The notes beneath the pieces were generated by a model. It did not search any database. It saw nothing but the letters and a program-made list of their open reading frames with translations, and was not told the origin of the DNA. A program made the translations under genes and the position numbers. From an uncultured Clostridia bacterium (GTDB lineage Bacteria; Bacillota; Clostridia; TANB77; CAG-508), in contig CAKOYU010000006.1 in assembly GCA_934130975.1 (NCBI GenBank), positions 14,372 through 78,371 of the forward strand: 64,000 nucleotides of DNA. The letters run 5' to 3'. Each line of letters opens with the position of its first letter. The stretch's first letter is position 1. Positions 20,560 to 20,790 of this stretch are shown in pieces.

Positions 20560-20790
20560 ATTTGCTACATGTTACTATATACAACTATAAATTTATATTT
20601 ATAAATATAATAATATATTGTTTTTTATACCTTGGTGTCGCAATCTTTATATTTAAAACACTAATATGAAGATTGCTCCATATCGCATTCGCTTTGCTCA
20701 TTTGGTCGCTTACGCGGTATTTCAAAACAATATATTATTAATTTTCTAGAATTTATATTATTTAGCTGTGAATTGTAACTATTAATTAGC
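20560..20790 (+). repeat. MITE-like palindromic repeat family, copy 1
   Basis: Core TAATAATATATTGTTTT...GTCGCAATCT...AGATTGCTCCATATCGCATTCGCT..GCTCATTTGGTCGCTTACGCGGTAT...AAAACAATATATTATTA. Right TIR GCTGTGAATTGTAAC. Confidence 0.8.

Follow-up and report, generated by a model that had tools for sequence, protein, structure and literature searches.

A conserved hairpin in an uncultured Clostridia genome is the central stem-loop of a small, palindromic, MITE-like intergenic element

[quoted passage not shown] We favour, with a probability of about 55%, the reading that the hairpin belongs to the cis-acting folded core of an element mobilised in trans, the arms of which may be kept complementary by processes acting on the DNA. 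The hairpin in the window is a conserved structure, but the four copies found there do not constitute evidence of compensatory evolution. The element represents an abundant repeat family in the small, AT-rich genomes of uncultured human-gut Clostridia, and neither Rfam nor the collections of phages and plasmids, nor the literature searched, yielded an earlier account of it.

The search of the window for GCAATCT-N(5-35)-AGATTGC gave exactly four matches, all on the forward strand (20640-20676, 25138-25174, 28810-28846 and 46457-46493), at the four places where the preliminary description of this DNA had located the hairpin, and the flanking strings quoted there are also in the sequence. As the pattern had no match in 100 shuffles, the hairpin is genuine in all four copies and lies far outside what chance would give. 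Each hairpin lies within a repeat copy of 208-214 nt (208-216 nt in the family), about one per 16 kb of the 64-kb window, and the element is without coding capacity, as an open reading frame (ORF) could not be conserved across the indels seen in loop and linker. From the outside inwards, the element is composed of 14-nt terminal inverted repeats (TIRs), GTTACAATT(C/T)ACAG … CTGTGAATTGTAAC, with the perfect form GTTACAATTCACAG / CTGTGAATTGTAAC; of mutually complementary outer arms of about 60 nt; of an inner helix P1 of 17-20 bp, TAATAATATATTGTTTT / AAAACAATATATTATTA; and of a 5-bp helix P2, ATACC / GGTAT. In single-stranded DNA or in RNA, the outer arms fold into a long helix, and P1 and P2 close an asymmetric, nearly invariant core of about 94 nt that holds P3 and has the order ATACCTTGGTGTC, hairpin P3, TCCATATCGCATTCGC, 2-5 nt, GCTCATTTGGTCGCTTACGCGGTAT. 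The parts of the four copies, together with their target-site duplications (TSDs) and one unoccupied site, are as follows.

20571-20779, forward strand: MITE copy 1, 209 nt; left end GTTACTATATACAA degenerate, right end CTGTGAATTGTAAC intact; without an intact TSD
20608-20624, forward strand: left P1 arm of copy 1, TAATAATATATTGTTTT, pairing with 20724-20740
20627-20720, forward strand: asymmetric conserved core of copy 1, from ATACC (5' side of P2) to GGTAT (3' side of P2), containing the hairpin
20640-20676, forward strand: central hairpin P3 of copy 1; 7-bp base GCAATCT/AGATTGC nearly invariant in the subfamily, distal stem and loop variable
20724-20740, forward strand: right P1 arm of copy 1, AAAACAATATATTATTA
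25057-25064, forward strand: left TSD of copy 2, AGTCGAAA
25065-25278, forward strand: MITE copy 2, 214 nt; perfect TIRs GTTACAATTCACAG / CTGTGAATTGTAAC; core about 25125-25218; hairpin 25138-25174
25279-25286, forward strand: right TSD of copy 2, AGTCGAAA, identical to the left one
28740-28947, forward strand: MITE copy 3, 208 nt; degenerate ends ATTACGTATTACAT / TTATAAATTGTAAT; core 28797-28890; hairpin 28810-28846
46371-46386, forward strand: left 16-nt palindrome extension of copy 4, AATGCATTTATAATTT, complementary to 46596-46611
46387-46595, forward strand: MITE copy 4, 209 nt; ends ATTACAATTTACT / GTGAATTGTAAT; core 46444-46537; hairpin 46457-46493
46596-46611, forward strand: right 16-nt palindrome extension of copy 4, AAATTATAAATGTATT
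16730-16758, reverse strand: unoccupied site between ruvA and mgsA, where the related genome L087 has a copy of about 200 nt

Some departures from this plan were seen in individual copies. P2 of copy 3 is ACACC/GGTAT, with a C.A mismatch on the forward strand. Together with its two extensions, copy 4 occupies all the space (46371-46611) between a yitT-like gene and the gerAC-like gene that converges on it, as a result either of insertion into a bidirectional terminator's loop or of outward growth of the palindrome. Copy 1 is bracketed by perfect 15-nt direct repeats, AAGATTAATATATAA (20529-20543 / 20858-20872), and copy 3 by perfect 12-nt ones, TTTAACTTAAAC (28714-28725 / 28974-28985); these repeats stand 15-80 nt outside the element ends and are distinct from the 8-bp TSD. 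At the site of copy 1, the L087 ortholog has the 15-nt pair as well, but of the element only a remnant.

The element is MITE-like in that it is small and non-coding, has TIRs and a TSD of fixed length, and occurs in dispersed, polymorphic copies. Among the type A elements, the subfamily to which the TSD result refers, 12 of 33 distinct two-ended copies lie between 8-bp direct repeats that agree at no fewer than 7 positions, four of them perfectly, as against 3/264 in offset controls, and the conservation of type A starts and stops exactly at the inverted termini, GTTACAATT(C/T)ACA… and …TGTGAATTGTAAC. Filled and empty sites were also found, with L082 carrying the element where L063 is empty. 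Internally deleted copies (L063:1148-1246, L019:~7440-7540, L011:~5075-5160 and L004:~1780-1865) have their break-points at short direct repeats and show the route by which the element decays; in the L063 copy the entire hairpin was lost between two TCGCA words. All copies but one are intergenic, the exception lying within a mechanically called ORF, and the flanking genes are of the housekeeping kind (murI, SNF2 helicase, gidA-like, yitT, gerAC). Their orientation to the flanking genes is near random, gaps between convergent genes being occupied as well, and the bias relative to the locally dominant gene strand is weak (32 to 16 for type A, 13 to 11 for type B).

The family was collected by an exact-word scan of one genome per species and by a metagenome scan with a different core word, each of which required an exact match to 20-24 nt of the core. 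The first gave at least 95 loci, all in human-gut metagenome-assembled genomes (MAGs) named as uncultured Clostridia or Clostridium and belonging to about ten species, one of them with a closed chromosome of 1.55 Mb; nhmmer on these loci raised the number to at least 110 copies, and a further 31 came from human-gut and other metagenome contigs; in all, more than 120 copies were collected beyond those of the window. The related loci were taken as 8-kb stretches around the matches, about 770 kb in all. Each MAG has at least 20 copies, and the window itself is 99% identical to a contig of the MAG CAKPDZ. The scan of Rfam 15 at gathering scores had no match at any of the four window copies, and an E-value scan with three divergent copies returned only sub-threshold long-hairpin models of plant and animal miRNAs; distant blastn against the phage and plasmid collections had no match, and the scan of IMG/VR with TCGCTTACGCGGTAT gave 14 chance matches, none with the remaining core.

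Across lineages the core is almost unchanged and the arms are unrelated: type B as well as L045, L064, L073 and L136 each have different arms, and each genome carries essentially one subfamily. The markers of a subfamily (TTGCTGTC with CTCC…ACTTG) recur in several genomes instead of being evened out inside each of them, an observation that speaks against strong gene conversion. The arms of type B are GGGACCGACCCC palindromic arrays, in which the core is embedded; their unit, GGGACCGACCCCRACAACAAAAA, has 21-22 nt, with a mini GC hairpin first and an A/T run after it. Tandem arrays of this unit, up to about 13 units long and some of them head-to-head palindromes, occur in the type B genomes either around the core, as its arms, or alone (L050:7706-7984, L086:3484-3662, L006:2134-2244, L075:7066-7148). 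We considered a nested insertion, that is, a young P1-core segment inside an older 'empty' MITE; for type A this was rejected because no empty carrier with type A TIRs was found among the orphan TIR matches, whereas in type B genomes, where core-less GGGACCGACCCC arrays do exist, such an insertion is conceivable.

The preliminary description had proposed that compensatory base changes keep a stem paired that extends differently in each of the four copies, and from this covariation it had derived selection on the structure itself, an inference that its own four copies do not support. The hairpin has 14 bp with one G.U in copy 1 and 13 bp with two G.U in copy 2, but in copies 3 and 4 stem position 8 is a C.U mismatch, and the 'extension' of copy 4 (GAAGC/GCTTGC) is discontinuous with the stem and forms a 3-bp mini-helix at best; the hairpin of copy 4 is absent from the minimum-energy fold of the forward strand. 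Nine of the 14 proposed stem pairs never vary among the four copies, two vary one-sidedly (C-G/U.G and U-A/U.G), two depart by mismatch only, and the one that changes on both sides is U-A in copy 1 and G.U in copy 2, the same pair being the C.U mismatch of copies 3 and 4. All covariation measures for the four copies were equalled or beaten by 217 of 500 shuffles. What had seemed compensation is a sum of single changes tolerated as wobble pairs, of a mismatch at one position that varies freely and of a single complex mutation with clustered changes. The last of these is the lineage-specific cluster of five substitutions in the hairpin loop of copy 4, where the orthologs in three other genomes have CATATTAAA(T/A)ATACTTACATG and the window has CATATTGAAGCTGCTTGCATG; five A/T-to-G/C changes clustered within 12 nt create the small palindrome AAGC-T-GCTT, in a copy with 400-nt flanks 99.6% identical to those of the L021 ortholog. 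Judged from this alignment, the 'extension' looks like a single complex mutation of the template-switch kind rather than stepwise compensation. Seeming compensation among a few copies of a palindromic repeat is thus weak evidence for an RNA structure, because such copies share descent, a change on one side can go unnoticed as a G.U pair, and correction acts on inverted repeats in the DNA itself.

In the larger sample the proposal of a selected structure fared better, in part: the fold is maintained at the level of the family, modestly, but the hairpin itself has few independent double changes. In 90 distinct copies, 94.2% of the cells were paired against 84.7% in shuffles, and 52 distinct stem variants, metagenome copies included, had 8 double-changed pairs against 3.8; 0/500 shuffles reached the observed value in either case, with the caveat that related sequences can exceed shuffles without any structure. 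Slid controls of the 52 stem variants dropped to 23-45% paired. The helices contribute unequally in the 90 copies, with P1 97.7% paired and changed on both sides at 11 of 17 pairs, P2 invariant and 99% paired, and P3 87.8% paired. Changes on both sides in P3 were found at stem position 5 (U-A to C-G, which separates type A from type B), at position 1 (G-C to A-U in L073) and at position 7 (U-A to A-U in L111, with U.U and C.U intermediates), and the distal stem is re-made in the L136 subfamily; two compensatory variants of P2 arose independently, one in L136 (AAACC/GGTTT) and one in L119 (ATATC/GATAT). Stem position 8, the key pair of the preliminary description, turned out to be the least paired of all: it is unpaired in 37 of the 90 copies, with all four bases opposite a nearly fixed U. 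No conserved helix was found beyond P1-P3 and a mini-hairpin of 2-3 bp; two further helices, GGUGU/AUAUC next to P3 and GCAU/AUGC within the 3' half, were rejected as single-copy predictions that are lost in type B or in linker variants. The arms of an inverted repeat can be homogenised by template switching and recombination at the DNA level, and no selection on an RNA is needed for their complementarity (PMC5941160, PMC13100816).

The conservation of the element is concentrated in its interior. In type A, conservation amounts to 90-100% in P1, P2 and the core and to 70-90% in the termini, against 50-80% in the distal hairpin and loop and 40-70% in the outer arms. Outside the stretch that served as bait, the core differs between orthologs at 20/912 positions (2.2%), compared with 4.8% in the flanks, which are mostly coding, and 8.0% in the distal hairpin and loop; the slow divergence of the core points to some constraint on it. 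We looked for the nature of this constraint in several ways. Promoter and terminator scans of the copies returned no convincing or conserved site, the frequency being that of chance in comparison with shuffles; a weak promoter-like site, GCGACA-18-TATATT, with 9/12 matches, is directed outward on the reverse strand and spans the core and P1, and it too occurs at chance frequency. A coding role was dismissed on inspection, as the short ORFs over the core are broken by ATG/ACG variation and by loop indels. The resemblance of the arms to a CodY box (AATTTTCTAGAATTT) was at chance level, with 39 matches where 31 were expected, and their resemblance to dif/Xer sites was rejected as well, the XerD half matching by eye at only 6/11 positions.

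The alignments of orthologs revealed that the core inverts in place: the flanks, target duplications and outer arms are collinear, and the central 100 nt or so are reverse-complemented. This was the case in 11 of 45 orthologous pairs, namely 2/13 of those with flank identity of 99% or higher, 1/7 at 97-99%, 8/18 at 93-97% and 0/7 below 93%. For three type A pairs, identity of the outer arms is 92-94% in the register that leaves them with the flanks and only 69% if they are moved with the core, which places the exchange inside P1, and the asymmetric junction bases beside P2 always move with the core. That inversion becomes broadly commoner with divergence is suggestive of occasional events, by recombination or by template switching from arm to arm, and not of a fast programmed switch. 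Long inverted repeats are known to flip their spacers passively in the 'flip-flop' inversions of chloroplast hairpin loops (PMC12928735).

On the reading that we favour, a transposase encoded elsewhere would move the element in trans, and the P1-P2-P3 core would be the cis-acting folded site, a hairpin or cruciform DNA platform for the transposase or for a host factor, such that only copies retaining the folded core could propagate. Recombination and template switching between the inverted-repeat arms would keep these complementary and would also flip the core. On read-through transcription, the arms of about 60 bp would form double-stranded RNA, a Correia-like RNase III substrate or transcript boundary. 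The preliminary description had offered a transcribed RNA, a cruciform protein-binding site and a transposase recognition hairpin, and it is the transposon-related option that fits the context best, because the hairpin sits inside a MITE with TIRs and 8-bp TSDs.

Several results weigh against this reading. A core that diverges more slowly than mostly coding flanks is unexpected for a selfish element and points to a function at each locus; if so, this would be a rare mobile repeat whose interior, and not its ends, is under selection. The conserved core with unrelated arms reverses the usual pattern of MITEs, in which the ends are kept and the interior is free. No transposase or recombinase domain was detected in 51 of the 52 window ORFs of at least 120 aa, no multi-copy protein among the 558 ORFs of the related loci, and no long element sharing the TIRs in these loci, where the orphan TIR matches were truncated copies or chance matches in genes. 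Many copies are without a recognisable TSD or without one of the TIRs, and the evidence for inversion comes wholly from short-read assemblies of MAGs and metagenomes.

We then asked whether the repeat carries a functional structured non-coding RNA, with a Y-shaped fold made of the P1/P2 junction and P3 and a conserved single-stranded segment of about 45 nt, which would be selected and would act per locus or in trans. We consider this possible but doubtful. An RNA would account for the slow core with the fastest change in the loop, for the persistence of the core in subfamilies with unrelated arms and for the compensatory changes in P2 and P3, and it would fit a mini-hairpin in which the tetraloop varies and the stem is constant (CGC-UUAC-GCG against CGC-UGGC-GCG). 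The fold is far more stable than in shuffles, with a z-score of about -7 (-6.8 to -7.2 for three copies on the forward strand), but the reverse strand is similar, and with RNAalifold both strands fold equally well (-28.9 against -30.1 kcal/mol). The strand could not be assigned from wobble pairs either: G.U cells exceed A.C cells 66 to 13 in P3 on the forward strand, but 38 of the 66 come from a single column, and P1 has 10 to 10, without strand bias. Moreover, the core is mostly invariant and hence uninformative on pairing, its orientation to the neighbours is near random and flips between genomes, the scans found no conserved promoter or terminator, and Rfam offered nothing apart from the generic miRNA hairpin models below threshold.

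A related idea, which we hold as tentative and on balance improbable, takes the P1-P2-core module of about 140 nt as the functional unit, be it a structured RNA or a protein-bound DNA switch, that purifying selection would preserve at roughly a hundred loci in each genome, across several species. The module would ride on different palindromic carriers (the MITE with TIRs and TSDs, the GGGACCGACCCC arrays and other arms) and have its orientation reversed via recombination in P1. If this were true, we would be dealing with a dispersed, mobile and orientation-switchable regulatory or RNA element instead of a decaying transposon relic.

It is unlikely, on the other hand, that the element has no function whatsoever and that its conservation reflects recent selfish bursts, ectopic gene conversion among about 100 near-identical copies and an ascertainment bias from exact patterns. 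Such a bias is conceivable since both scans demanded the exact core match, and the presence of essentially one subfamily per genome, the chance level of the four-copy covariation and the free drift of stem position 8 and the distal stem all agree with this explanation. However, the non-bait core is 2-4 times less diverged than the flanks and the loop in the same ortholog pairs, insertions are shared between species at 87-95% flank identity and the copies are hence not recent, the cross-genome subfamily markers speak against strong gene conversion, and lineages swap arms yet keep the core.

Quite improbable, finally, is a mobile inverton, in which a site-specific recombinase acting on the P1 repeats would flip a core with a directional signal, such as an outward promoter, and make the neighbours phase-variable: inverted repeats of 17-20 bp do bracket a segment of about 100 nt in both orientations, even at 99-100% flank identity, P1 is nearly invariant within a subfamily, the weak outward promoter-like site spans the core and P1 on the reverse strand, and inversion of Correia elements has been proposed as a mechanism of phase variation (PMC10969869), but inversion is commoner with divergence, as would be expected of a mutation now and then sooner than of a rapid switch, no gene for a recombinase was found in the scanned window ORFs or beside the copies, promoter-like sites are no commoner than in shuffles, copies also lie between convergent genes, the spacer of about 94 bp is very short for the synapsis of duplex sites, and long inverted repeats flip their spacers passively, as in chloroplasts (PMC12928735).

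In architecture and behaviour, the closest known system is that of the Correia elements of Neisseria (CREE/NEMIS); their sequence is unrelated, so the present element is not a member. Correia elements have inverted repeats and a conserved core, promoters, and binding of IHF and RNase III (PMC2649163; PMC10969869), and their inversion in situ is reported (PMC10969869, citing Elbeyioglu 2017). Both elements are small (100-200 bp in the case of Correia), abundant, non-coding and intergenic, with TIRs around a conserved core and no known transposase of their own; both would form a long hairpin when transcribed, an RNase III substrate, and inversion in place, reported for Correia, is seen here too. 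They differ in that Correia elements duplicate TA and have a Neisseria-type TIR of 26 bp, whereas the element described here duplicates 8 bp and has another TIR sequence, longer arms (about 60 nt) and a core with its own hairpin that is conserved despite differing arms. Its host, moreover, is a Gram-positive spore-former.

With MITEs and other palindromic repeats (ERIC, RUP, BOX, bcr1, Nezha, QMITE) the element shares its size, copy number, intergenic location, TIRs and TSDs, a stable predicted hairpin and polymorphism of presence and absence, but those repeats have conserved ends and a decaying interior from a known insertion sequence (IS), whereas in the present element nothing is better conserved than the interior, and the loci analysed yielded no parent IS. 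TSDs of 8 bp occur in IS256, ISL3, IS6, IS66 and IS1595, and the TIR GTTACAATTCACAG could not be matched to them. The REP/REPIN-RAYT system is alike in its abundant intergenic palindromes, which form long hairpins, in a substrate presumed to be a single-stranded hairpin and in a mobilising gene that is single-copy or absent; a REPIN, however, joins two REPs of 20-40 nt with a GTAG motif as an inverted doublet and makes no TSD, and membership was rejected in view of the TIRs, the 8-bp TSDs and the single asymmetric core of about 94 nt in place of two REP units. A PATE derived from IS200/IS605 was also discarded, as it needs subterminal hairpins without TIRs or TSD and here both are present and the hairpin is central. 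So was an integron attC site (RYYYAAC…GTTRRRY), as on inspection the ends GTTACAA…TTGTAAC misfit the R boxes and the neighbours are housekeeping genes, not cassette arrays.

Invertons share with the element the inverted repeats around a short segment in both orientations and a gut bacterial host, but they are fixed loci beside specific genes, with a recombinase and an internal promoter; here we have about 100 dispersed mobile copies, no recombinase detected in the scanned window ORFs or the related loci, promoter-like sites at chance frequency and an inversion that scales with divergence. Flip-flop and template-switch events resemble what is seen here, namely spacers of perfect inverted repeats reverse-complemented between close relatives, arms held complementary by paired changes and clustered changes that make small palindromes (PMC12928735, PMC5941160, PMC13100816). 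They are generic to any inverted repeat; they explain the flipping and the complementarity of the arms, but not the conservation of the asymmetric core.

The element is likely to affect transcript boundaries as well as assembly and strain comparisons in these Clostridia, because it inserts next to housekeeping genes, would form hairpins of about 60 bp on read-through and flips its core between close relatives. The window has an RNase III gene (41433-42131, forward strand), the enzyme that is expected to cut the arm duplex of about 60 bp if this is transcribed.

Other features of the window were recorded in passing. A full-length OLE (ornate large extremophilic) RNA (Rfam RF01071, 320 bits) lies at 14893-15445 on the forward strand and is followed by a 176-aa ORF (15507-16037) without a Pfam match, which could be an OLE-associated protein. 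The 3' end of a tRNA-Leu(CAA) at 9735-9817 on the reverse strand (GCCCAAAGTGGGACT on the forward strand) is repeated three times (7272-7438, 9536-9702 and 9710-9753), two of these within a 138-nt repeat that is 91% identical, and a gene with a BRO-N domain (6370-7206) adjoins them; the repeats look like the att-site footprints of one or two integrated elements. Tandem repeats were seen at 61751-62302, with about eight head-to-tail units of 69-nt period in a long ORF that runs past the end of the window, and at 13823-13948, with five copies of a 21-nt coding repeat (…KRWDENDKRWEENN…). Two adjacent half-size ORFs (19074-19445 and 19458-19847, forward strand) match the profile of TauE/SafE exporters in swapped order, the first corresponding to profile positions 129-236 and the second to positions 2-106.

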